DNA from: an uncultured Actinomycetes bacterium
GTDB taxonomy: Bacteria; Actinomycetota; UBA4738; HRBIN12
Direction of reading: 5' to 3'
Length of the DNA: 64,000 bases
Assembly: GCA_963704725.1 (NCBI GenBank)
Contig: OY969934.1
Span: 1,376,001-1,440,000 of the forward strand
This document shows, in pieces, positions 16,290 to 33,118 of this stretch. Below the pieces are notes generated by a model. That model had not been told where the DNA came from and made no database searches. It saw only the letters and a program-made list of their open reading frames with translations. Each line of letters starts with the position of its first letter. Positions within the stretch are counted from its first letter, which is position 1. The translations under genes were made by a program, and so were the position numbers.

Positions 16290-17957
16290 ATGATCGAGGA
16301 GCGACTCACCGAGCTGCTGCGCAGGGCCCTCGAGGCCTCCGGGCTGGTCCCCGACGCCGCCTCGGTCGAAATCGTCCTCTCGAAACCCCGCCTGAGGGAG
16401 CACGGGGACTTCTCGACGAACGTCGCGCTCACCCTCTCCAAGCGCCTGGGCCACCCGCCACGGGAGCTCGCCGACCTGATCGTCGCTCATCTCCCCGCGT
16501 CCGGGCTGGTCGAGTCGGCCGAGGTGGCCGGCCCGGGCTTCGTCAACCTCCGGGTCTCCGACGTGTGGCTCCACGACGCCCTGCGGTCGGCGGCCGAGCT
16601 CGCCGAGGGCTACGGGCGGTCGGCCCCGACCGGGCGGCGCGTCCAGGTCGAGTTCGTGAGCGCCAACCCCACCGGGCCGCTCACGCTCGGGCACGCCCGG
16701 AACGCGGCCATCGGCGACGCGCTGGCCCGGCTCCTCGCGTTCGGCGGGTGGGACGTCGAGCGCGAGTACTACTTCAACGACGCGGGCGGGCAGATGGACC
16801 GTTTCGGCGCGAGCGTCGAGGCGCGCTACCTCCGGCTCGCCGGCCGCGAGGCCGAGGTCCCCGACGACGGGTACCACGGGGAATACGTGGCCGAGCTGGC
16901 GAAGGACATCCTCGAGGTCGAGGGACCGGCCCTGGTCGACCTGCCGGCGGACGAGCGCCTGGCGCGGCTGCGCGACGAGGGCGCGCGACGGGTGCTCGGC
17001 TGGATCCGGGCCACGCTCGAGCGGTTCGGCGTGCGGTTCGACGTGTTCACGTCGGAGGCGGATCTCTCCGGCCGCGGCGAGATCGACGGGGCGGTCGAGC
17101 AGCTCCGGGCGTCCGGGTTCGCCTACGACGCCGAGGGCGCCGTGTGGTTCCGTTCGACGGCGTTCGGCGACGACAAGGATCGGGTGGTGGTCCGATCGAA
17201 CGGCGTGCACACGTACTTCGGCGCGGACTGCGCGTACCTGATCGACAAGTTCGGCCGGGGCTTCGATCACGTGATCTACGTGTGGGGCGCCGATCACCAC
17301 GGCGACGTGGTGCGGGTCCGGGGGGCCGGCCGGGCGCTCGGCTTCGATCCCGACGCGATCGAGATCGTGATCTACCAATGGGTGTCGTTCCTGCGGAACG
17401 GCGAGCCGGTGCCCATGAGCAAGCGGGCCGGCACCTTCATCACGCTCGACGAGCTGATCGACGAGGTGGGCGCGGACGCCGCGCGGTTCCACCTGCTGAT
17501 GTTCAGCAACGACGCGACGATGAACTTCGACATCGAGACGGTGCGCCGGCAGTCCATGGACAATCCCGTCTACTACGTGCAGTACGGCCACGCGCGGATC
17601 GCGTCCATCCTTCGCACGGCGACGCAGCGGGGCGTCGAGCTCCGGCCCATCGCCGACGCCGACCTCTCCTTGCTCCGGCACGAGCGAGAGCTCGACCTGC
17701 TGCGCGGGATCGCCGAGGCGCCGGCCGAGATCGCGCGAGCGGCCGACCTCCGAGCCCCGCACCGGCTGACGCACGCGGCCCAGGACCTCGCCGGCTCGTT
17801 CCACCGCTTCTACACGGAGTGCCCGGTGCTGTCCGACGACAGCTCGCTCACCCAGGCGCGGCTGTGGCTCTGCGTGGGAGCGAAGCAGGTGATCGCGAAC
17901 CTGCTGAGCCTGCTGGGCGTCTCTGCGCCGGAGTCGATGGAGCGGTCGGATGACTGA
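16290..17957 (+). CDS. argS: Arginine--tRNA ligase
   Basis: VEFVSANPTGPLTLGHAR, GADHHG, MSKRAG and NPVYYVQYGHARI. Confidence 0.97.
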   Translation: MIEERLTELLRRALEASGLVPDAASVEIVLSKPRLREHGDFSTNVALTLSKRLGHPPRELADLIVAHLPASGLVESAEVAGPGFVNLRVSDVWLHDALRSAAELAEGYGRSAPTGRRVQVEFVSANPTGPLTLGHARNAAIGDALARLLAFGGWDVEREYYFNDAGGQMDRFGASVEARYLRLAGREAEVPDDGYHGEYVAELAKDILEVEGPALVDLPADERLARLRDEGARRVLGWIRATLERFGVRFDVFTSEADLSGRGEIDGAVEQLRASGFAYDAEGAVWFRSTAFGDDKDRVVVRSNGVHTYFGADCAYLIDKFGRGFDHVIYVWGADHHGDVVRVRGAGRALGFDPDAIEIVIYQWVSFLRNGEPVPMSKRAGTFITLDELIDEVGADAARFHLLMFSNDATMNFDIETVRRQSMDNPVYYVQYGHARIASILRTATQRGVELRPIADADLSLLRHERELDLLRGIAEAPAEIARAADLRAPHRLTHAAQDLAGSFHRFYTECPVLSDDSSLTQARLWLCVGAKQVIANLLSLLGVSAPESMERSDD

Positions 17958-19758
17958 GGGCGGTCCCTGGCCGGACCACGCGCGGTTCGGCGCCCAGGGG
18001 CTGGTCGTGGCCGGCGTCGCGGCTGAGGAGCTGGCGCGTCGGTACGGGACGCCGCTCCTGGTCGCGGACGAGGATCACCTGCGCGACCGGGCCCGGGCGT
18101 TCGCGACGCTGTTCCCGCACCCGCTGTACGCCGTGAAGGCGTTCTGTTCGCGCGCCGCGATCCGGATCGTCGCGGAGGAGGGCCTCGACCTCCTGGTCTC
18201 GACCGGCGGGGAGCTCGAGGCCTGCCTGCGCGCCGGGGTCCCGGGGAGCCGGATGGTCCTGCACGGCAACAACAAGTCCGACGACGAGCTCCGCCTGGCC
18301 GTCGCCACCGGGGTGCGGCTCGTGAACGTCGACAACCCCGAGGAGCTCGAGCGCCTGGAGCGGGTCGCGGCGGAGGCGGATGCGGTCCAGCCGATCATGC
18401 TCCGCGTGATCCCGGGAGTGGGCGCCGGAGCCAACGAGAAGATCGTCACGGGGGCCGTGGGGTCCAAGTTCGGCACGGCGCTGGAGCTCGTCCCCTCGAC
18501 GGTCCGCCGGGCCGTGGAGCTCGGCCACGTGCGGCTCGTGGGAATCCACTCGCACGTCGGCTCGCAGGTCCTGGAGGCCGAGCCGTACCTGGCCGAGGTC
18601 GACGTCCTGCTCGACCTGCTCATCCACCTCCGCGAGGAGGCGGGGTTCGTGGCCGAGCTCGTCGACCTCGGCGGCGGGTTCGGCGTGGCGTATACGGACG
18701 AGTCGCCGTTCGCGCTCGACGAGCTCGCGCCGGCCCTCCTCGCCCGTGTGCACGAGGGCGCCGAGCGCCGGGGGCTGCCGCCGGTCCACACGCTCGTCGA
18801 GCCGGGGCGCTCCGTCGTGGGGACGGCCATGCTCACGCTGTACCGCGTGGGAACGGTCAAGGCCTCGGCCGGCGGTCCGACGATCGTCGCCGTCGACGGC
18901 GGGATGTCGGACAACATCCGGCCGATGCTGTACGGCTCCCGCTACACGGTGGCGTTCGCCGGAGCGCCGCGAGGCGTCTCGCCGACGTCCGTCGACGTCG
19001 TCGGGCGACACTGCGAGTCCGGGGACGTGCTCGCCCGCGACGTGAAGCTGCCGGTCGAGCCGCGGCCCGGCGACCTCCTCGCGTTCGCCGCGACCGGCGC
19101 GTACACGTACTCGATGGCGAGCACGTACAACCGCGTGGGGCGCCCGGCCGTGGTCGCCGTGCGGGAGGGGACGGTCGTGCCTTGGCTCCGCCGCGAGGAG
19201 CCGGCCGACCTCGATCGGCTCGAGGCCGCCCCGCCGGCGACCCTGCCGAGGTCGCGGCCCGAGAGCATCGAGATCCGCCCGGCCCGTCCCGGCGACGCCC
19301 GGTCGTTCCTCGAGCTGTACCGGAGCGTCGCCGCCGAGCGGCGCTTCATCCAGACCGAACACGTGTCCCGCTCCGCCGGCTACTACCGGCGACGGTTCCG
19401 CCGGTCCCTCGACGACGGGGGAGCCCACCTGCTCGCCGTGGAGGGCGAGCGCGTGGTGGGAAGCCTGTCGATCCGCCGTGACCTGCAGCCCGCGATCCGA
19501 CACGTGGCGACGCTGGGGATGCTGGTCGCGGAGAGCCACCGTGGCCGGGGGATCGGAGGCGCGCTGATGGAGGAGGCGCTGCGGTGGGCGCGCCGGGTCG
19601 GCATCGAGCGCGTCGAGCTCACGGTCTACCCCCACAACGCCGTGGCGATCGCGTTGTACCGCGGGTTCGGGTTCGTCGAGGAGGGGAGGCTCGTCCGCCA
19701 CTCGAAGAAGTCGTACGGCTACGAGGACGAGATCCTTATGGCCGCGTTCCTGGACTGA
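17950..19758 (+). CDS. lysA: Diaminopimelate decarboxylase with fused C-terminal GNAT domain
   Basis: YAVKAF (PLP Lys), HGNNKS, HSHVGSQ, EPGRS, HCESGD and GAY; followed in frame by GNAT RGRGIG...NAVAIALYRGFGF. Confidence 0.93.
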   Translation: MTEGGPWPDHARFGAQGLVVAGVAAEELARRYGTPLLVADEDHLRDRARAFATLFPHPLYAVKAFCSRAAIRIVAEEGLDLLVSTGGELEACLRAGVPGSRMVLHGNNKSDDELRLAVATGVRLVNVDNPEELERLERVAAEADAVQPIMLRVIPGVGAGANEKIVTGAVGSKFGTALELVPSTVRRAVELGHVRLVGIHSHVGSQVLEAEPYLAEVDVLLDLLIHLREEAGFVAELVDLGGGFGVAYTDESPFALDELAPALLARVHEGAERRGLPPVHTLVEPGRSVVGTAMLTLYRVGTVKASAGGPTIVAVDGGMSDNIRPMLYGSRYTVAFAGAPRGVSPTSVDVVGRHCESGDVLARDVKLPVEPRPGDLLAFAATGAYTYSMASTYNRVGRPAVVAVREGTVVPWLRREEPADLDRLEAAPPATLPRSRPESIEIRPARPGDARSFLELYRSVAAERRFIQTEHVSRSAGYYRRRFRRSLDDGGAHLLAVEGERVVGSLSIRRDLQPAIRHVATLGMLVAESHRGRGIGGALMEEALRWARRVGIERVELTVYPHNAVAIALYRGFGFVEEGRLVRHSKKSYGYEDEILMAAFLD

Positions 19759-21165: not shown

Positions 21166-22217
21166 TGGCGCGTCCCTGGCGCGGCGTGATCGAGGAGTAC
21201 CGGGACCGGCTTCCTGTGACCGAGCACACCCCGGTGATCACGCTGTGCGAGGGCGGCACGCCGCTCGTCCGCTCGGAGCCGCTGTCGGCCGAGACGGGAT
21301 GCGAGGTCTGGCTGAAGTACGAGGGCGCCAACCCCACGGCCTCGTTCAAGGACCGGGGGATGACGCTCGCGATCAGCAAGGCGGTCGAGGCCGGCTCCAA
21401 GGCGGTCGTGTGTGCCTCGACCGGCAACACGAGCGCGAGCGCCGCGGCCTACGCGGCGAAGGCCGGCCTCACCTGCGCGGTCCTGGTGCCGAAGGGCAAG
21501 ATCGCCATGGGCAAGATGGCCGCCACCCTGGTCCACGGCGCCCAGGTCCTCGAGATCGAGGGGAACTTCGACGCCTCGCTCGAGGTGGCGAAGGAGCTCG
21601 CCGAGCGGTACCCGGTCACGCTCGTCAACTCGGTCAACCCCTACCGCATCCAGGGGCAGAAGACGCTGGCGTTCGAGGTCGTCGACGCGCTCGGTCGAGC
21701 CCCCGACCTCCATTGCGTGCCGGTCGGCAACGCGGGGAACATCTCGAGCCACTGGCGCGGCTACTCGGAGTACCTGGCGGACGGCGTGATCCACGAGCCG
21801 CCGCGGCTGTTCGGCTTCCAGGCCGCGGGAGCCGCGCCGCTCGTCAGCGGGGTCCCCGTGCCGAACCCCCAGACGATCGCCACGGCGATCCGCATCGGGA
21901 ACCCGGCCTCGTGGGACATGGCCCTCGGCGCAGCGAAGGAGTCCGAGGGCGGCATCCTCGCCGTCACCGACCGCGAGATCCTCGCGGCGTACCGCCGCGT
22001 CGCCCACGAGGGCCTGTTCGCCGAGCCGGCCTCGGCGGCGAGCGTGGCCGGCCTGCTGCGCCTGGCCGCGGAGGGCATCCTCAACCCCGGCGCCACTGTG
22101 GTCTGCGTTCTCACCGGCCACGGGTTGAAGGATCCCGAGTGGGCCATCACCGGCGCCGCGCGTCCCCGCACGGTGGGTGCCGACGCGCACGCCGTCGCCG
22201 AGGAGCTCGGGCTCTAG
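21165..22217 (+). CDS. thrC: Threonine synthase
   Basis: [27 protein letters not shown] and LTGHGLKDP. Confidence 0.96.
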
Positions 22218-23189: not shown

Positions 23190-25388
23190 ATGACGACGGA
23201 CCCACACGGCCGCGACGACGACGCCGCGCAGGGATCCGAGCTGTCGGGAGCCAAGCCCGTCGTCGTCACCGACCTCGCGAGCAAGACCCTCGCGGTGAAG
23301 GAAGGCGACACCTTCCTCTACTCCGATCTCGAGGGGAACCTCGACCACGGCGGCGACTACGGCCTCGGCCTGTACGCCAAGGACACGCGGTTCCTCTCGC
23401 ACTTCAAGATGACGATCAACGGCCGGCCCCCGGTCCTGCTGTCGTCGTCGTCCGAGCGCGGCTACATGTCGCACGTCGACCTGACCAACCCCGACCTGTA
23501 CGACGACGAGGTCGTCACCGTCCCGCAGCAGACTCTCAACCTCCGCCGCATCCGCGCCATCAACGGCCGGATGTTCGAGCGCGTCCGGGTGAAGAACTAC
23601 AACCCGTTCCCCGTCACGCTCGACCTCGAGTTCCATCTCGGCGCCGACTTCGCGGACATCTTCGAGGTGCGCGGCATGACCCGGGAGGCGGGGCCCGCGC
23701 CGCGGCCTCCGGTGGTGCGCGACGGCGTGATCGAGTTCGTGTACGACGGTCGCGACGACCTCCGCCGCACCACGCGGATCGAGTTCGCCGGGCTGCCGGA
23801 TCGCATCGACGTCCACGGGCTGCTCGCGACCGCGGTCTTCCGCATTCACCTCGGCCCCTACCAGACCAAGCTCGTCGGGCTGTCCATCGATCCCGTCATC
23901 GAGGACGGGAGCCCGTCGTCGACGGACTTCGACCACGCGGTCCACGAGCTCCGCCGGTCGTACGAGGAATGGGAGCGGGAGTCCACCGAGATCGTGACGG
24001 ACAACGAGCTCTTCAACGAGCTGCTGGCGCGGAGCCGGCGCGACCTCAGGGTCCTCCACACCGACACCGACGGCGGCTCGGTCCTGGCCGCGGGCATTCC
24101 CTGGTACGTCACCGTCTTCGGTCGCGACGCGCTGATCGCCTCCCATCAGCTCTTGCTGGTGAACACGCGCCCGGCCCGCGAGGCGCTCGAGCTCCTCGCC
24201 GCCAAGCAGGGCACGACGATCGACGACTGGCGCGACGAGCAGCCGGGCAAGATCCTGCACGAGATCCGCCATGGCGAGTTCGCGCGCGCCGGGATCATCC
24301 CGCACACGCCGTACTACGGGTCGGTGGATGCGACGCCGCTGTTCGTCCTCCTCTACGCGATGCACCTCCGGTGGACCGGCGACGTCTCGTTCGCCGAGAA
24401 GCTCCTGCCGGCGGCCGAGGCGGCGCTCGGATGGATCGACCAGTACGGCGACGTGGACGGCGACGGTTTCGTCGAGTACCAGACACGCTCGTCTCGCGGG
24501 ATCCGCAACCAGGGATGGAAGGACTCGCACGACTCGGTCGTTCACGCCGACGGTCGCCTGGCCGAGCCCCCCATCGCGCTGGCGGAGGTGCAGGGATACG
24601 TGTACCTGGCGAAGCTGCGGATGACCGACGTGTATCGGGCGCTCGGTCGCCATGCGGACGCGCGGCGCCTGGTCGATGAGGCCGCGGCGTTGAAGCTCCG
24701 GTACAACGAGGCGTTCTGGATGGAGGACGAGCACTACTTCGCGCAGGCGCTCGACGCCGACAAGCGGCAGGTGCGCACCGTGACGTCCAACCCGGGCCAC
24801 GGTCTCTACTGCGGGATCGTGGACGACGACAAGGCCGTGCCGCTCGCCCGGCGCTTGCTCTCGCCCGACATGTTCTCGGGCTGGGGCATCCGGACGATGA
24901 GCAAGGCGGCCGCGGCGTACAACCCGATGAGCTACCACAACGGCTCGGTCTGGCCGCACGACAACGCGCTCATCGCTGCCGGCTTGAAGCGCTACGGCTT
25001 CGCCCGGTCGACGAACCGGGTGGCCACGGCGATGTTCGACGCGGCCGTGCAGGCCGACTACATGCGCCTCCCCGAGCTCTTCTGCGGGTTCACGCGCCGC
25101 ACGCCGAACCGCCCGGTCAGCTACCCGGTCGCGTGCTCACCCCAGGCGTGGGCCGCCGGATCGCCGTACCTCATGCTGCAGGCGATCCTGGGGATCTCGG
25201 CCCGGGCCCACGAGAACCTCCTCACGGTGAACCTCCCGCACCTCCCCACGTGGCTCAACACCGTCGAGGTGCGCAACATCCGGGTCGGCGAGAGCCGCAT
25301 CAGCATCGTGTTCCGGCGCGAGGGGGAGATCACGTCGTTCTCGCTGCTGGCGCGCGAGGGCGACGTGCGTGTGGTGATGGAGGAGTAG
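23190..25388 (+). CDS. Amylo-alpha-1,6-glucosidase-like (alpha/alpha)6 glycoside hydrolase
   Basis: AAGIPWYVTVFGRD, EQPGKILHE, YYGSVDATPLF, NQGWKDS, YHNGSVWPHDN and LPELFCG. Confidence 0.9.
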   Translation: MTTDPHGRDDDAAQGSELSGAKPVVVTDLASKTLAVKEGDTFLYSDLEGNLDHGGDYGLGLYAKDTRFLSHFKMTINGRPPVLLSSSSERGYMSHVDLTNPDLYDDEVVTVPQQTLNLRRIRAINGRMFERVRVKNYNPFPVTLDLEFHLGADFADIFEVRGMTREAGPAPRPPVVRDGVIEFVYDGRDDLRRTTRIEFAGLPDRIDVHGLLATAVFRIHLGPYQTKLVGLSIDPVIEDGSPSSTDFDHAVHELRRSYEEWERESTEIVTDNELFNELLARSRRDLRVLHTDTDGGSVLAAGIPWYVTVFGRDALIASHQLLLVNTRPAREALELLAAKQGTTIDDWRDEQPGKILHEIRHGEFARAGIIPHTPYYGSVDATPLFVLLYAMHLRWTGDVSFAEKLLPAAEAALGWIDQYGDVDGDGFVEYQTRSSRGIRNQGWKDSHDSVVHADGRLAEPPIALAEVQGYVYLAKLRMTDVYRALGRHADARRLVDEAAALKLRYNEAFWMEDEHYFAQALDADKRQVRTVTSNPGHGLYCGIVDDDKAVPLARRLLSPDMFSGWGIRTMSKAAAAYNPMSYHNGSVWPHDNALIAAGLKRYGFARSTNRVATAMFDAAVQADYMRLPELFCGFTRRTPNRPVSYPVACSPQAWAAGSPYLMLQAILGISARAHENLLTVNLPHLPTWLNTVEVRNIRVGESRISIVFRREGEITSFSLLAREGDVRVVMEE

Positions 25389-27530: not shown

Positions 27531-28334
27531 GTGGTCACGATCGCCCACATCTCGGACCCTCACGTCGGTTCCCCCTACTTCGTCCCCAACCTGATGCACC
27601 GCGTGATCGTCGAGCTGAACGAGCTGCAGCCCGACGTCGTGATCTGCAGCGGAGACCTGACCAACGAGGGGTATCGGCAGGAGTTCAAGAACTGGGTCGC
27701 GTACGCCCAGCGGATCCAGGCCCCCATGTTCACGGTCCCCGGCAACCACGACGCTCGCAACGTGGGCTACCTCCACTTCGAGGAGCTGATCGGCGCCCGC
27801 GCCTGGAGCACCGACGTCCAGGGTGTGCGCATCGTCGGCGTCGACTCCAGCGAGCCCGACATCAACGAGGGGCAGGTGGGCCGCGAGCGCTACGACTGGA
27901 TCCGGGAGCGCTTCGACGTCCCGGCGGACCTCAAGGTGTTCGTGCTGCACCACCACCTCCTGCCGATCCCGGGCACGGGCCGCGAGCGCAGCACGGTGAT
28001 GGACGCCGGCGATCTGCTGGAGGAGCTGATCTCGGCCGGGGTGAACATCGTGCTCTCCGGTCACAAGCACGTTCCGTACGTGTGGCGGCTCGAGGACCTG
28101 TACGTCGCGAACGCTGGGACCGTCGCCTCGCTCCGCGTCCGCGGCTACACCAAGCCGTGCTACAACGTGCTCGAGTTCGAGGGGGACCTGGTCAAGATCA
28201 CGCGGAAGTACCCGTTCGGCGCGGGGAGCGTGATCGCGCATTTCTCGCTGTCCACCGGCGAGCAGTTCTTCCGAGAGCTCGAGCCGCCGGTGCAGCCGCG
28301 GACCACGGTGTCGCAGGGGCATCAGGGGGAATAA
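27531..28334 (+). CDS. Calcineurin-like metallophosphoesterase (CpdA/Icc-like)
   Basis: HISDPH, SGDLT, PGNHD, LHHH and SGHKH motifs; TAGACT upstream. Confidence 0.9.
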   Translation: MVTIAHISDPHVGSPYFVPNLMHRVIVELNELQPDVVICSGDLTNEGYRQEFKNWVAYAQRIQAPMFTVPGNHDARNVGYLHFEELIGARAWSTDVQGVRIVGVDSSEPDINEGQVGRERYDWIRERFDVPADLKVFVLHHHLLPIPGTGRERSTVMDAGDLLEELISAGVNIVLSGHKHVPYVWRLEDLYVANAGTVASLRVRGYTKPCYNVLEFEGDLVKITRKYPFGAGSVIAHFSLSTGEQFFRELEPPVQPRTTVSQGHQGE

Positions 28335-28407
28335 CCCGCCGGACGATCGAGCCACCGCACCGGATCGATAGGTCCACCCACCCAGGAATCGGCACCCAGG
28401 AGGCGTC

Positions 28408-29745
28408 GTGAGGGTCCTCGTCCTCGTGGACGGCGAGCACTATCCACCCGTCACCCGGTGGGGGATCGAGGTCGCCCGAGGACGGGGCCTCGACCCCGTC
28501 GCCGCGCTGCTGGTCGGCGGCGTCGAGAAGCTGCGGCCGGGGGAGGCGCTCGACCTGGGAACCCCGGTCCGGATCGCGGGCGAGGACGTCGCCGCCTCCC
28601 TCGCCGCGGCAATCGAGGACCTGGCGCCGGAGGGTCTGCAGGGCGTGCTCGATCTGTCCGACGAGCCCGTCCTGGGCTATCGGGAGCGGATGGAGCTGGC
28701 CGCCGTGACCCTGATCCGGGGGTTGCCGTACGTCGGCGCCGACTTCCGGCTCGACCCACCGATCGATGGCCCGCCGCTCGAGGTGCCGGCGCTCGCGGTG
28801 ATCGGGACCGGCAAGCGAACGGGCAAGACCGCCATCGCCGGCGAGGTCGCCCGGACCGCGGTGGCGATGGGAGCCCGTCCCGTCGTCGTGGCCATGGGCC
28901 GGGGCGGTCCGCTCGAGCCGCAGATCGCGCAGGCCGGCAGTGTCACGCTCGATCGGTTGCTCGAGCTGGTCCGCAGCGGAGAGCACGCGGCGTCGGACTA
29001 CCTCGAGGACGCGGTGACGACCGGCGTGACGACCGTCGGGGCCCGGCGTGCCGGCGGAGGGCTGGCCGGCCGGCCGGCCGCCACCAACCTCCGGGAGGCC
29101 GCCGAGCTCGCGACGGGTCTCGGCGCCGGGATCGTGATCCTGGAGGGGAGCGGCTCCGCGATCCCCCCGGTCCCCTGGGACGCCGGCGTGCTGGTTGCGC
29201 CCGCCTCGCTCCCCGTCGAGTACCTGGGGGGATACCTGGGACCGTTCCGACTCTTGCTATCCAACCTGGTCGTTGTTACCATGGGTGCCAGCCCAGCCGG
29301 GCTCGAGAACCTCCCTGTCTTCAGATCCCTCGTCCAGCGACTGCATGGTGATGCCCGGCTCATCGTGACGGATCTCCATCCACAGCCGCTCGGCGATGTC
29401 GAGGGCAAGGACGTGTTCTTCACCACGACGGCGCCGGGGCCGGTCGCGAAGAGGCAGGCCGGGTCCCTGGAACGGAACCACGGCTGCCGTGTGGTGGGGT
29501 GGAGCGCTCGTCTTGCCGACCGGGCGGGGCTGGCGCGAGACCTGGACGGCGCCGGAGGGTACGAGGTGCTGCTCACCGAGTTGAAGGCGGCCGCGGTGGA
29601 CGTGGCCTGCGAGCGGGCCCTCGCGCGGGGCGCGGAGGTCGTGTTCGTCGACAACCGGCCCGTCCCGATGGAGGGCGAACCCGATCTCGGGTCCGCGCTG
29701 AGGGAGACGATCGAGCTGGCCGTGGAGCGGAAAGCCGACAGATGA
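28408..29745 (+). CDS. cpgS: Cyclic 2,3-diphosphoglycerate synthetase
   Basis: LVDGEHYPPV, DLSDEPVL, IGTGKRTGKTA, MGRGGP, HAASDYLED, RRAGGGLAG, LEGSG and LLTELKAAAVD match the CpgS motif series as I recall it. Confidence 0.88.
   Translation: MRVLVLVDGEHYPPVTRWGIEVARGRGLDPVAALLVGGVEKLRPGEALDLGTPVRIAGEDVAASLAAAIEDLAPEGLQGVLDLSDEPVLGYRERMELAAVTLIRGLPYVGADFRLDPPIDGPPLEVPALAVIGTGKRTGKTAIAGEVARTAVAMGARPVVVAMGRGGPLEPQIAQAGSVTLDRLLELVRSGEHAASDYLEDAVTTGVTTVGARRAGGGLAGRPAATNLREAAELATGLGAGIVILEGSGSAIPPVPWDAGVLVAPASLPVEYLGGYLGPFRLLLSNLVVVTMGASPAGLENLPVFRSLVQRLHGDARLIVTDLHPQPLGDVEGKDVFFTTTAPGPVAKRQAGSLERNHGCRVVGWSARLADRAGLARDLDGAGGYEVLLTELKAAAVDVACERALARGAEVVFVDNRPVPMEGEPDLGSALRETIELAVERKADR
29254..29282 (+). 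promoter_or_regulatory. Internal sigma70 promoter within cpgS
   Basis: TTGCTA-N17-TACCAT with extended TG, in a locally AT-richer patch. Confidence 0.55.
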
Positions 29746-30755
29746 CGCCAGACACCGGTACCCCTTCCCGATCCGGGACGGGGCCCGACACCGGTTCCGA
29801 GAGCAGGAACGAGCCTCGGAGCCCGCGCATCCTCATCCACGACGGTCCGTCCGGACTGCCGTACTCGAAGGGTCTGCGAGCGTCCGAGGTCATGGTGACC
29901 GGTCTGTCGCCATATCGCGCCTACCAGGTCGCCGAGGCCGTGGAGCAGCGGCTGCTCGAGCGGGGCGCGGCCTCCGCGACGAGCGAGGAGCTGGGTGACC
30001 TGACCCTCGAGGTCATCGAGGAGCTGGCCGGCGAGCGGTACGCCGACAACTACCGGCGGTGGCGGGAGGTGGAGGCGCTCGACGTCCCGATGGTCGTCCT
30101 GATCGGCGGGGCGACGGGGGTCGGGAAGTCGACCATCGCCACCCAGCTCGCGACGCGACTGGGGATCGTCCGGGTCGTCGCCACCGACGCGGTTCGAGAG
30201 GTCCTGCGCGCCGTCTTCTCCCGGGAGCTCATGCCGACCCTGCACACGTCGTCGTTCGAGGCGGGGGAGGTGCTGCGGGAGCCGCCATCGCGCGACGCGG
30301 TGGTGGTGGGGTTCCGCGAGCAGACGGCCGCCGTCGCGGTCGGCGTGAACGCGCTCCTGGATCGCGCAGCGATGGAGGGGACGAGCCTCATCATCGAGGG
30401 CGCGCATATCGTCCCGGGGTTCCTCGAGGCGAGCGCCTGGGAAGACCGCGTGCTGGCGGTGCCGGTGATCCTCACCGTGGACGAGGAGGATGCGCATCGC
30501 AGTCACTTCGCGGCTCGCGCGGCCGATCACGCGGGCCGATCCGCCTCCCGGTACCTCGAGCAGTTCGACCACATCCGGCGGGTGCAGCGCTACATCAAGA
30601 ACCAGGCGCTCTCGCACGGCGTGCCGGTCATCTCCAACTTCAACTTCGACCGCACCCTGGCGGCCGTCATCGACCTCGTGATGGAGCGCGCGACCGGGCG
30701 GATCGCGGGTCACCGCCCGCGCGTCGGATCCGCGACCGAAGGAGGGACCCCGTGA
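29742..30755 (+). CDS. pgk2: 2-phosphoglycerate kinase (ATP-cone plus P-loop)
   Basis: LPYSKGL, LIGGATGVGKSTIA, ATDAVREV, PTLHTSSF and IIEGAHIVPG; ATGA overlap with cpgS. Confidence 0.87.
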   Translation: MTPDTGTPSRSGTGPDTGSESRNEPRSPRILIHDGPSGLPYSKGLRASEVMVTGLSPYRAYQVAEAVEQRLLERGAASATSEELGDLTLEVIEELAGERYADNYRRWREVEALDVPMVVLIGGATGVGKSTIATQLATRLGIVRVVATDAVREVLRAVFSRELMPTLHTSSFEAGEVLREPPSRDAVVVGFREQTAAVAVGVNALLDRAAMEGTSLIIEGAHIVPGFLEASAWEDRVLAVPVILTVDEEDAHRSHFAARAADHAGRSASRYLEQFDHIRRVQRYIKNQALSHGVPVISNFNFDRTLAAVIDLVMERATGRIAGHRPRVGSATEGGTP

Positions 30756-31414
30756 AGCTGTTCCTGGACACCGCGAACATCGAGGAGATCCGAGAGATCA
30801 ACCGATGGGGCGTGCTGCGTGGCGTGACCACGAACCCGTCGCTGATCTTCAAGGAGAAGCTGGACCCGGAGCGGGTATGGAAGGAGATCCTGGCCGAGGT
30901 CGACGGCGACGTGTCGCTCGAGACCACCGAGCCCGAGCCGGGCCCGATGTACGAGGAGGGGCTCCGGCTGGCCCAGATGGCCCCGAACGCCGTCGTGAAG
31001 GTCCCCATGACGGAGGCCGGGCTCGAGGCCGGCAAGCGCCTCGTCGACGACGGGATCCGGATCAACGTGACGCTCGTGTTCTCCCCGGCCCAGGCGATCC
31101 TGGTGGCCGAGGTGGGCGCGTACATCGTGTCCCCGTTCCTGGGGCGACTGGACGACGCCGCGGCAGACGGGATGGACGTCCTTCGGAAGATCTGCGAGAT
31201 CTACGAGGTTCAGGGGTATGAGACCAACGTGCTGGCCGCGTCCCTGCGGCATCCCATGCACGTCGTCGAATCCGCGCTCGCCGGGGCCGACATCGCCACG
31301 ATGCCGTATGCGGTCTTCAAGCAACTGGTCAAGCACCCGCTCACCGACGTTGGAAACGAGAAGTTCCTCCGGGACTGGACGTCCCTCAAGGAGGAGCTGG
31401 AGAAGGGAGCCTGA
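30752..31414 (+). CDS. tal: Transaldolase / fructose-6-phosphate aldolase (short type)
   Basis: FLDTAN, GVTTNPSL, VVKVP, NVTLVFS, SPFLGRLDD and HPLTD. Confidence 0.92.
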   Translation: MKLFLDTANIEEIREINRWGVLRGVTTNPSLIFKEKLDPERVWKEILAEVDGDVSLETTEPEPGPMYEEGLRLAQMAPNAVVKVPMTEAGLEAGKRLVDDGIRINVTLVFSPAQAILVAEVGAYIVSPFLGRLDDAAADGMDVLRKICEIYEVQGYETNVLAASLRHPMHVVESALAGADIATMPYAVFKQLVKHPLTDVGNEKFLRDWTSLKEELEKGA

Positions 31415-33118
31415 GTGGCAACCATGGAGAAGAGCGCCCTCGAGGGCAAGGTCGCGTCCGAGCTGCACCAGATCGCGTCCGACCTCGGGATCGAGGGGCA
31501 CAAGGGGCTCAAGAAGGCCGATCTGATCGATCGCATCCTGACGCACGCCAACGGCGCGCGGTCGGGCGGCGTCGCGACGGCGCCGGCCCCGGCCCCCGCG
31601 CCGGAGTTGACGGCCGGCCCGGCCGAGGAACGTCGGGCCGCCGGCAACGGCGAGGCACGCATCGACATGCGCCCCGCCCCAGGCAACGGAGAAGGCAGCT
31701 CGCAGGAGCGTCGGGACGACCGTCCGCCGCGCGACCGGTTCGAGCCCCGCGGGGGCGATCGGACGAACGTGCGCGAGGGTGGTCCTGTTCGCGACCGTGA
31801 GGGGGGTCCTCCCCGCGGCCGCGAGGGCGGGCAGCAGCGCGAGGGCGGTCCTCCCCGCGACCGCGAGGGCGGGCAGCAGCGCGAGGGCGGTCCTGCCCGC
31901 GACCGCGACGCGAGCCGTCGCCGGCCGTCCCGGGAGGAGCGCCGCCGACAGCGGGAAGAGCGCCGGGTTCGCGAGTTCGAGGTCCGCGAGGAGGAGCTCG
32001 CCACCGCCCCGACCGCGACCGGGCTGCTCGACATCCTGCCCGAGGGATACGGGTTCCTGCGGACCTCCGGGTTCCTGCCGGGCCCGCAGGACATCTACGT
32101 CTCGCTGTCGCAGGTCCGTCGGTTCATGCTGCGCAAGGGCGACACGGTCACCGGCAAGGTGCGCCAGCCGAAGGACAGCGAGAAGTACTTCGCGCTGCTG
32201 CAGATCGACACCGTGAACGGCGTCGACCCCGAGACTGCGAAGGCCCGGCCCGTCTTCGAGAAGCTGACGCCGCTGTTCCCGCACGATCGGTTCCGGCTGG
32301 AGACCGGACCGACCGACGTGACCGGCCGCATCATCGACATGGTCTCCCCGATCGGCAAGGGGCAGCGGGGGATGGTCGTCTCCCCGCCGAAGGCCGGCAA
32401 GACGACCGTGCTGAAGAACATCGCAAACGGGATGATCGCCTCGAGCCCGGACACGCACGTGATCATCCTGCTCGTCGACGAACGGCCCGAGGAGGTCACG
32501 GACTGGCAGCGCACGGTGTCGGCGGCGGAGGTCGTCTACTCGACCTTCGACAAGCCGCCGGACCAGCACATCCAGGTGACCGAGCTCGTGCTCGAGCGGG
32601 CCAAGCGTCTGGCCGAGATGGGCAAGGACGTCACGATCATCCTCGACTCGATCACCCGGCTCGCGCGCGCGTACAACCTCGCCGCGCCGGCCTCGGGCAA
32701 GATCCTGTCGGGGGGCATCGACTCGACGGCCCTGTACCCGCCGCGGCGGTTCTTCGGCGCCGCCCGCAACATCGAGGAGGGCGGCTCGCTCACGATCATC
32801 GCGAGCGCGCTCGTCGAGACCGGCTCCCGGATGGACGAGGGTATCTTCGAGGAGTTCAAGGGCACGGGGAACATGGAGATCCGCCTCGACCGCCAGATGG
32901 CCGAGAAGCGCATCTTCCCCGCGATCAACGTCGAGGCCTCCAGCACGCGCAAGGAGGAGCTGCTCCTGCCGACCGAGGAGCTCGCGCTGGTCTGGCGGCT
33001 CCGACGGGTGCTGCACGCGCTCGAGCCGGGCGCCGCGCTCGAGCTCCTCACCGACAAGATCCGTCAGACGAAGTCCAACGAGCAGTTCCTGAGGGAGATC
33101 GCCAAGGCCCCGTCGTAA
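31415..33118 (+). CDS. rho: Transcription termination factor Rho with N-terminal insertion
   Basis: GYGFLR, DIYVS, PIGKGQRG, PPKAGKT, DERPEEVTD and EEFKGTGNME. Confidence 0.97.
   Translation: MATMEKSALEGKVASELHQIASDLGIEGHKGLKKADLIDRILTHANGARSGGVATAPAPAPAPELTAGPAEERRAAGNGEARIDMRPAPGNGEGSSQERRDDRPPRDRFEPRGGDRTNVREGGPVRDREGGPPRGREGGQQREGGPPRDREGGQQREGGPARDRDASRRRPSREERRRQREERRVREFEVREEELATAPTATGLLDILPEGYGFLRTSGFLPGPQDIYVSLSQVRRFMLRKGDTVTGKVRQPKDSEKYFALLQIDTVNGVDPETAKARPVFEKLTPLFPHDRFRLETGPTDVTGRIIDMVSPIGKGQRGMVVSPPKAGKTTVLKNIANGMIASSPDTHVIILLVDERPEEVTDWQRTVSAAEVVYSTFDKPPDQHIQVTELVLERAKRLAEMGKDVTIILDSITRLARAYNLAAPASGKILSGGIDSTALYPPRRFFGAARNIEEGGSLTIIASALVETGSRMDEGIFEEFKGTGNMEIRLDRQMAEKRIFPAINVEASSTRKEELLLPTEELALVWRLRRVLHALEPGAALELLTDKIRQTKSNEQFLREIAKAPS
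31772..31908 (+). repeat. Imperfect 42-bp in-frame tandem repeat in the rho insertion
   Basis: Encodes REGGPPRGREGGQQ-REGGPPRDREGGQQ-REGGPARDR. Confidence 0.8.

Follow-up and report, generated by a model that had tools for sequence, protein, structure and literature searches.

The genome of an uncultured Actinomycetes bacterium (GenBank assembly GCA_963704725.1, contig OY969934.1) contains, within a 64,000-nucleotide stretch that we refer to as the window (positions 1,376,001 to 1,440,000), three co-oriented genes that may serve the synthesis and turnover of cyclic 2,3-diphosphoglycerate (cDPG). They encode a calcineurin-like metallophosphoesterase (MPE), a homologue of cDPG synthetase (cpgS), and a P-loop kinase of the 2-phosphoglycerate kinase (2PGK) family (pgk2). 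We estimate a probability of about 0.6 that MPE-cpgS-pgk2, co-oriented and coupled with the downstream genes tal and rho, is a chromosomal module of great age that has been inherited vertically in this actinobacterial lineage and encodes a cDPG pathway. This reading is based on homology, conservation of ligand-binding residues, gene coupling, co-occurrence, and synteny, from which we infer the substrates, the product, the part played by the MPE, and the physiological role of the cluster.

In the proposed pathway, the kinase would convert 2-phosphoglycerate to 2,3-diphosphoglycerate (2,3-DPG), and CpgS would use ATP to close an intramolecular phosphoanhydride, yielding cDPG as in Methanothermus fervidus. 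The MPE would most likely open or dephosphorylate the product, converting either cDPG to 2,3-DPG or 2,3-DPG to a phosphoglycerate. Together, the three genes would encode a make-and-break cycle branching from lower glycolysis/gluconeogenesis. Its pool would act as an anionic solute, a carbon-phosphate reserve, or both, rather than as a hyperthermophile-specific thermoprotectant. The original prediction made from this DNA had described a cpgS-kinase pair in the interval from 27531 to 30755; the pair is present, but the conserved MPE gene at the start of the interval had been overlooked, so that the module comprises three genes rather than two.

Identity and active site of CpgS

The product of cpgS matches the M. 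fervidus cDPG synthetase (cDPGS), the structures of which were reported by De Rose et al. in 2023 (PDB 8ORU/8ORK; PMC10690619), over its full length (phmmer E 6.9e-93; residues 2 to 440 on 5 to 453), and the homology takes in the unique N-terminal domain of that structure as well as its P-loop core. The assignment to the CpgS family, previously made from motifs, is thereby borne out. Both proteins have the same two-domain layout, a Walker A motif of the form GTGKRxGKT, the Mg ligands, the glutamate and lysine of the partner subunit, and a C-terminal ELK; one comes from an archaeal and the other from a bacterial host. The corresponding motifs in the window protein are GTGKRTGKT (residues 133 to 141), HAASD (193 to 197), and ELKAA (391 to 395).

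We mapped the ligand and catalytic residues listed in the ligand-complex section of PMC10690619 onto the window protein through the phmmer alignment, on which all but P335 could be placed. Ten of the 11 mappable M. fervidus residues are kept. These are the partner-subunit residues E45 and K46 (E40 and K41 in the window), the Walker A residues that contact 2,3-DPG and Mg (K145, R146, K149, and T150; window K136, R137, K140, and T141), the Mg ligand D208 (D197), T353 (T341), and E404 and K406 (E391 and K393). All ten are invariant across 19 actinobacterial sequences from 19 genomes. Judged by its sequence, the gene product is a genuine CpgS with a predicted capacity to form cDPG from 2,3-DPG and ATP.

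None of the models in our local copies of Pfam and NCBIfam matched the window CpgS. Relatives that are 70 to 83% identical to it carry a precomputed PF27272 assignment and are named "cyclic 2,3-diphosphoglycerate synthetase" by JGI and NCBI. Of 8,000 scored candidates, 7,897 matched at an E value of 1e-5 or below, and the family contains 232 clusters at 50% identity (E of 1e-30 or below). A third PDB chain bearing the synthetase name, of 436 amino acids (PDB 9SXB), matches the window CpgS at an E value of 5.1e-92; we considered whether it is the protein of one of our actinobacterial families (f19, described below), and it is not the same protein.

Distribution, synteny, and age of the gene cluster

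Among the nearest relatives of the window's genome, 40 of 41 carry cpgS, as do 146 of the 151 genomes of its class that are at least 85% complete. Across the phylum (301 genomes at least 90% complete), cpgS is found in 178 genomes and the kinase in 176. The two occur together in 175 genomes, three have only cpgS (G036, G395, and G399), one has only the kinase (G247), and the remaining 122 lack both. The pattern follows family lines, with both genes in every genome of some families (f9, 21/21; f19, 24/24) and neither gene in any genome of others (f14, 0/13; f15, 0/14; f27, 0/9). These tallies take in genomes flagged as unpublished, and no conclusion rests on those alone. Close holders of cpgS have records titled simply "Actinomycetota bacterium," and more distant ones include Candidatus Aquicultor and Euzebyaceae. 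The description of the pathway as archaeal type and present in a few bacteria such as Rubrobacter therefore understated its spread, and the gene is already named as such in public sources.

A synteny survey across Actinomycetota, which the original prediction had suggested, was carried out by tblastn of the window proteins against a set of 20 genomes across the phylum sample (set A) and a set of 76 bacterial loci (set B). The kinase lies directly downstream of cpgS in 18/20 genomes of set A and 72/73 testable loci of set B, where the sole miss is a locus labelled as Bacillota. The MPE gene lies directly upstream of cpgS in 17/20 and 50/69 testable loci, respectively; tal follows in 13/20 and 61/67, and rho follows in 16/19 and 54/57. 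The full order MPE-cpgS-pgk2-tal-rho recurs in many families, set within a conserved hom-thrB...rho-rpmE-prfA backbone.

Variants of this order exist within the phylum. The group around family f9 and one locus of family f16 (L011) have a strong MPE match elsewhere in the genome. Loci of family f19 (L013, 5846 to 6850 on the minus strand, and L138; also L027 and L137) read MPE-cpgS-glpX-rho, where glpX encodes a class II fructose-1,6-bisphosphatase, and the 2PGK gene of this family is situated about 0.9 Mb from the cluster. Outside the phylum, the three Methanobacteriota genomes that we inspected (two of them titled Methanobrevibacter) have cpgS, 2PGK, and MPE genes at separate places. Whereas cpgS in the window shares an operon with the kinase, MPE, tal, and rho genes, the archaeal cpgS loci that we examined lack such neighbors (0/3 and 0/11 testable).

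The constancy of the pairing bears on whether cDPG is the end product at all. The physiological product could be 2,3-DPG, serving for instance to prime a cofactor-dependent phosphoglycerate mutase or acting as an effector of metabolism, with CpgS and the MPE only buffering its level. Such a role would suit the central-carbon neighbors of the cluster (tal here, glpX in family f19), the one actinobacterial genome with the kinase and without cpgS, and the wider spread of the kinase family within archaea, with two members in each of the three Methanobacteriota genomes examined. Yet cpgS and the kinase occur together in 175 of the 179 genomes that have either, and they are translationally coupled in the window. 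Moreover, because every CpgS residue mapped to 2,3-DPG binding or catalysis is invariant, it can be argued that cyclization itself is under selection. We consider 2,3-DPG an unlikely end product.

In a tree of 74 CpgS sequences, the sequences of the window's class form one clade (100*), and the archaeal sequences likewise form one clade (100*); the sampled bacterial and archaeal CpgS are therefore separated by a single branch. Among the matches listed, the window CpgS is 38 to 44% identical to archaeal sequences. As the tree is unrooted and its archaeal members come from one phylum only, we make no claim about the direction of transfer between domains.

The genes themselves have the appearance of long residents. 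All reading frames of the module are intact, and MPE, cpgS, and pgk2 are each present as a single copy in the window's own 3.45-Mb genome. Their G+C content at third codon positions (GC3) is 0.88 to 0.94, compared with 0.91 to 0.96 in argS, lysA, hom, rho, and prfA, in agreement with the host-like codon style noted earlier, and no mobility genes turned up among the flanking open reading frames scanned, as had also been stated. The proposal that the pathway is a long-resident core trait is upheld by the near-universal presence of cpgS in close relatives and in the class, its single copy, the one class clade, and the conserved core backbone. We reject as scarcely credible the alternatives that the module was recently acquired from methanogens by horizontal transfer or is a functionless relic in decay: the pathway was first described in archaea, but intact frames, host-like composition, the lack of mobility genes, the presence in 146/151 class genomes, synteny with the core backbone, and the position of archaeal and bacterial CpgS on opposite sides of one 100* branch all stand against such an origin.

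A candidate enzyme for cDPG turnover

The MPE belongs to the calcineurin-like metallophosphoesterases (Pfam PF00149; 75.5 bits, cut-off 21.5) and has a complete set of dinuclear-metal motifs: D9-x-H11, G41-D42, G71-N-H-D74, H140-H-H142, and G177-H-K-H180. These motifs (DxH, GD, GNHD, HHH, and GHxH) are invariant in the MPE family, which additionally has motifs of its own (TGRER, the invariant T149-G-R-E-R153 of the window protein; DSSxPD; and LRGxxxxxYN). Invariant basic residues (R76, R151, R153, K179, and R204) surround the complete dimetal site and would suit a polyanionic small substrate. The nearest solved structures by sequence are Rv0805 and GpdQ (3IB7, 2HY1, 3D03, and 2ZO9; E about 1e-9), and the same group is nearest by fold (Foldseek E about 1e-16, TM 0.65 to 0.74). 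The MPE shares the fold and the metal-binding motifs of this group but differs from it by an identity of only about 20%, by its own invariant motifs, and by a phyletic pattern that tracks cpgS.

Within the phylum, a strong MPE match (E of 4e-59 or below) is found in 174 of the 178 cpgS-positive genomes, missing in G180, G324, G339, and G405, and in one of the 123 cpgS-negative genomes (G271), three others of which have only weak matches near 1e-16. This co-occurrence adds little beyond synteny, since the genes are usually adjacent and the relatives are not independent. Archaea provide a comparison in which the genes are unlinked. The three Methanobacteriota genomes with cpgS and 2PGK also have MPE orthologues that are 43 to 45% identical to the window protein (E about 1e-64). 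Across 181 Methanobacteriota genomes, cpgS and the MPE are each present in 167; 159 genomes have the two together, each gene occurs singly in 8, and 6 have neither (expected 1.1). Fisher's test gives p 1.5e-4, a value that overstates the association since the genomes are related and incomplete.

Hydrolases of cDPG are known as activities from Methanothermobacter thermautotrophicus (cited in the review PMC1224877). They would form the degradative arm of a cDPG cycle, the role that we propose for the MPE. No gene for this activity was named in the parts of the literature covered by our searches. We infer that the MPE is the hydrolytic arm of the pathway in the window. The broader proposal is tentative, and on balance we hold it possible but doubtful: that the MPE is the degradative enzyme of cDPG metabolism common to methanogens and Actinomycetota, that MPE, 2PGK, and CpgS form a make-and-break cycle, and that cDPG is a mainstream metabolite in the phylum.

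Weighing the pathway assignment

A number of observations count against a cDPG pathway in this lineage, beginning with the kinase. Its best NCBIfam family is NF003259 (2-phosphoglycerate kinase), matched at 295.9 bits (E 3.6e-88, profile positions 6 to 294 of 306), which falls short of the equivalog cut-off of 343; the family placement made earlier thus stands as a best match and misses the curated threshold. Another operon-linked actinobacterial kinase is also below the cut-off, at 315.6 bits. Matches to the paralogous families are much weaker (NF008995, 150.9 bits; NF008996, 84.8 bits), and the protein has a Walker A motif, GATGVGKS, at residues 123 to 130. No solved structure is available for it (best match E 0.006, unrelated).

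Archaeal 2PGKs share with the window kinase the best-matching family and the P-loop, and the window kinase is 35 to 41% identical to the long forms of the three Methanobacteriota genomes, each of which has two family members. One such long form (locus L109 of genome G442; 41% identical) passes the cut-off at 408.6 bits and consists of an ATP-cone (E 8.1e-12) followed by the kinase. In the window protein, the N-terminal ATP-cone signal is weak (residues 54 to 110, E 0.0015, 19.5 bits against a cut-off of 25.8), and the N terminus is extended by a variable stretch of about 25 residues. Because 295.9 and 315.6 bits compare with a passing 408.6 for the archaeal counterpart, the operon-linked kinases represent a diverged branch of the 2PGK family. 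From its sequence, we regard the window protein as a diverged 2PGK-family kinase, and its coupling to cpgS suggests orthology with 2PGK.

Two further points concern CpgS. The ATP-ribose contact E305 of the M. fervidus enzyme is replaced by A294 in the window (MGASP instead of MCEEP), although most other actinobacterial sequences retain EE at this position, and E305 is a nucleotide contact and not a catalytic residue. In addition, in a metagenome-assembled genome labelled as Bacillota (L102, 5041 to 11219), a homologue of cpgS (45% identity) is flanked by a GntR/UTRA regulator on one side and an ABC transporter (substrate-binding protein, permease, and ATPase) on the other. This genome lacks a 2PGK homologue and an MPE orthologue (one Bacillota locus examined of four), and this homologue may represent a different use of the CpgS fold.

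Divergence of this kind would be expected if the operon-linked actinobacterial enzymes were a subfamily acting on a different phosphorylated acid and making a different cyclic or linear pyrophosphate. The sub-threshold kinase scores, compared with the passing archaeal (408.6 bits) and unlinked f19 (380.6 bits) proteins, the 38 to 44% identity of CpgS to archaeal sequences, the replacement of E305, and the transporter context without a kinase in another phylum are all compatible with a changed substrate. Against it, there is no variation in the residues that touch 2,3-DPG in the crystal structure (K145, R146, and, from the partner subunit, E45) or in the Mg ligands, and family f19 has the same MPE-cpgS pair together with a 2PGK of archaeal grade. 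A different product is, in our judgment, quite unlikely.

The remaining difficulties concern the MPE and the literature. One cDPG hydrolase of M. thermautotrophicus is described in the review as membrane bound and inhibited by K+ and phosphate (PMC1224877), whereas the predicted model of the MPE contains no helix longer than 14 residues and the protein looks soluble. Some actinobacterial families keep the MPE gene apart from cpgS, the shared absence of the two genes within the phylum may reflect only a few deletions, and cpgS and MPE are discordant in 16 of the 181 Methanobacteriota genomes. In the phylum labelled as Bacillota, 4 of 221 genomes have a cpgS homologue without an MPE, which was found in 0/221 at an E value of 1e-25 or below. 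Given its presence in the cpgS-bearing lineages of the phylum and the archaea and its absence from these 221 genomes, four of them with cpgS, the MPE is specific to cpgS-bearing lineages and is not obligatory for cpgS. Finally, cDPG is described in passages of PMC10690619 as exclusive to hyperthermophilic methanogens, and no record of bacterial cDPG came up in our literature searches.

Genomic context of the cluster

The features of the cluster are listed in Table 1. The cpgS and pgk2 genes overlap by ATGA at 29742 to 29745, with the cpgS stop TGA at 29743 to 29745 and the kinase start ATG at 29742 to 29744, and the kinase stop lies over the GTG start of tal in a GTGA overlap at 30752 to 30755. 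The tal stop TGA occupies 31412 to 31414 and the GTG start of rho follows at 31415 with zero gap. Both overlaps and the gapless tal-rho junction are thus present in the sequence as originally read. The cpgS gene itself starts with GTG and is separated from the MPE gene by a 73-nucleotide spacer containing AGGAGG. The tal product scores 257.7 bits against TIGR00875 (cut-off 245.95) and matches PF00923 at an E value of 7.6e-56, and the rho product scores 607.7 bits against TIGR00767.

Table 1. Features of the MPE-cpgS-pgk2 cluster and the genes that follow it (positions in the window; aa, amino acids)
Feature	Position	Strand	Basis or remark
Metallophosphoesterase (MPE), 267 aa	27531..28334	+	Pfam PF00149; first gene of the cluster
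AGGAGG, Shine-Dalgarno-like	28398..28403	+	Read from the sequence; 4 nucleotides upstream of the cpgS start
cpgS, cyclic 2,3-diphosphoglycerate synthetase homologue, 445 aa	28408..29745	+	Match to 8ORU/8ORK
pgk2, 2-phosphoglycerate-kinase-family P-loop kinase, 337 aa	29742..30755	+	NCBIfam NF003259
tal/fsa, short-type transaldolase or fructose-6-phosphate aldolase, 220 aa	30752..31414	+	TIGR00875, PF00923
rho, transcription termination factor	31415..33118	+	TIGR00767

The tal and rho links, kept at most testable loci of both sets over phylum-scale divergence, raise the question of whether cDPG or 2,3-DPG is instead a low-level regulatory molecule tied to the expression of rho and sugar-phosphate metabolism, with no bulk solute or store. 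The pairing of a synthase with a phosphoesterase does resemble second-messenger systems. However, we found no receptor, riboswitch, or regulator, and no Rfam match at an E value of 0.1 or below between positions 25000 and 35000. The order beside a housekeeping gene could also be merely inherited, and the archaeal genes are unlinked. A signaling role strikes us as very unlikely. A scan for promoters and terminators returned none between 27000 and 34000, although it used the sigma-70 consensus only, which is little informative at 71% G+C. Among the sequencing runs listed for the locus, none was of RNA and all were of DNA, with shares of 0.05 to 0.07; we base nothing on them as to habitat or expression.

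Upstream of the cluster, the window backbone reads argS, lysA, hom, thrB, a GDE/MGH-like hydrolase gene, and MarP (minus strand); downstream of tal it continues with rho, rpmE, DUF1385, DivIVA, prfA, Sua5, LMW-PTP, and GT4. Between Rho_N (residues 9 to 42) and the RNA-binding domain (202 to 273), the rho product has an insertion of about 150 residues that is rich in R, G, E, and P and contains repeated REGGPPRDREGGQQ-like units. Two genes upstream of the cluster, a plus-strand gene at 23190 to 25388 encodes a 732-residue protein with a GDE_N_bis domain, an MGH1-like (mannosylglycerate hydrolase-like) glycoside hydrolase domain, and a GDE_C domain; these domains would fit a hydrolase of the glycosyl-glycerate or glycogen-debranching type, and a second solute-related gene near the cDPG cluster would be of interest.

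Elsewhere in the window, the gene in the lysA position (17950 to 19758, plus strand; 602 residues) fuses a diaminopimelate/ornithine-type pyridoxal phosphate-dependent decarboxylase to a C-terminal GNAT acetyltransferase domain. The long plus-strand open reading frame at 21245 to 23107 matches the GHMP-kinase N domain only at residues 389 to 471, and thrB probably starts near 22.2 kb within it. No Pfam match was obtained in the stretch of about 1 kb that separates hom from thrB, and a threonine synthase was not found at the position expected for thrC; in mycobacteria, the gene order is hom-thrC-thrB.

Implications for cDPG metabolism

In the 1980s, 31P-NMR surveys found cDPG in several Methanobacteriales, mesophiles included, a background that we do not use as evidence. 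Recent work, in the passages bearing on its occurrence, treats cDPG as a metabolite of hyperthermophilic methanogens and does not discuss bacterial homologues (PMC10690619; bioRxiv 10.1101/2025.02.21.639460), and cDPGS is treated in part of another study as a marker of archaeal thermophily (PMC7554672). Searches covering cDPG, the synthetase, the hydrolase, and the pairing of 2PGK with metallophosphoesterase returned no bacterial or actinobacterial cDPG pathway. A carbon-phosphate storage role for cDPG has been proposed in the review cited above (PMC1224877). The genes have a long history and a wide spread in the phylum, where automated annotation already names them, and it is the production of cDPG by bacteria that is predicted from these genes.

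With three genes, the operon is compact enough for direct expression and assay. It would also offer a non-archaeal source of enzymes for cDPG production, for which there is industrial interest according to the passages of PMC10690619 and bioRxiv 10.1101/2025.02.21.639460 that touch on it. For the hydrolytic step, the MPE provides a specific candidate that is relevant to methanogens too. If these bacteria make cDPG, the view that it is confined to hyperthermophilic methanogens would be wrong, and the known physiology of Actinomycetota would gain, for a large and mostly uncultured part of the phylum, a phosphorylated solute or reserve of high charge. Should the proposed role of the MPE also be true, cDPG would rank as a mainstream metabolite of a major bacterial phylum, in over half of its sampled lineages.

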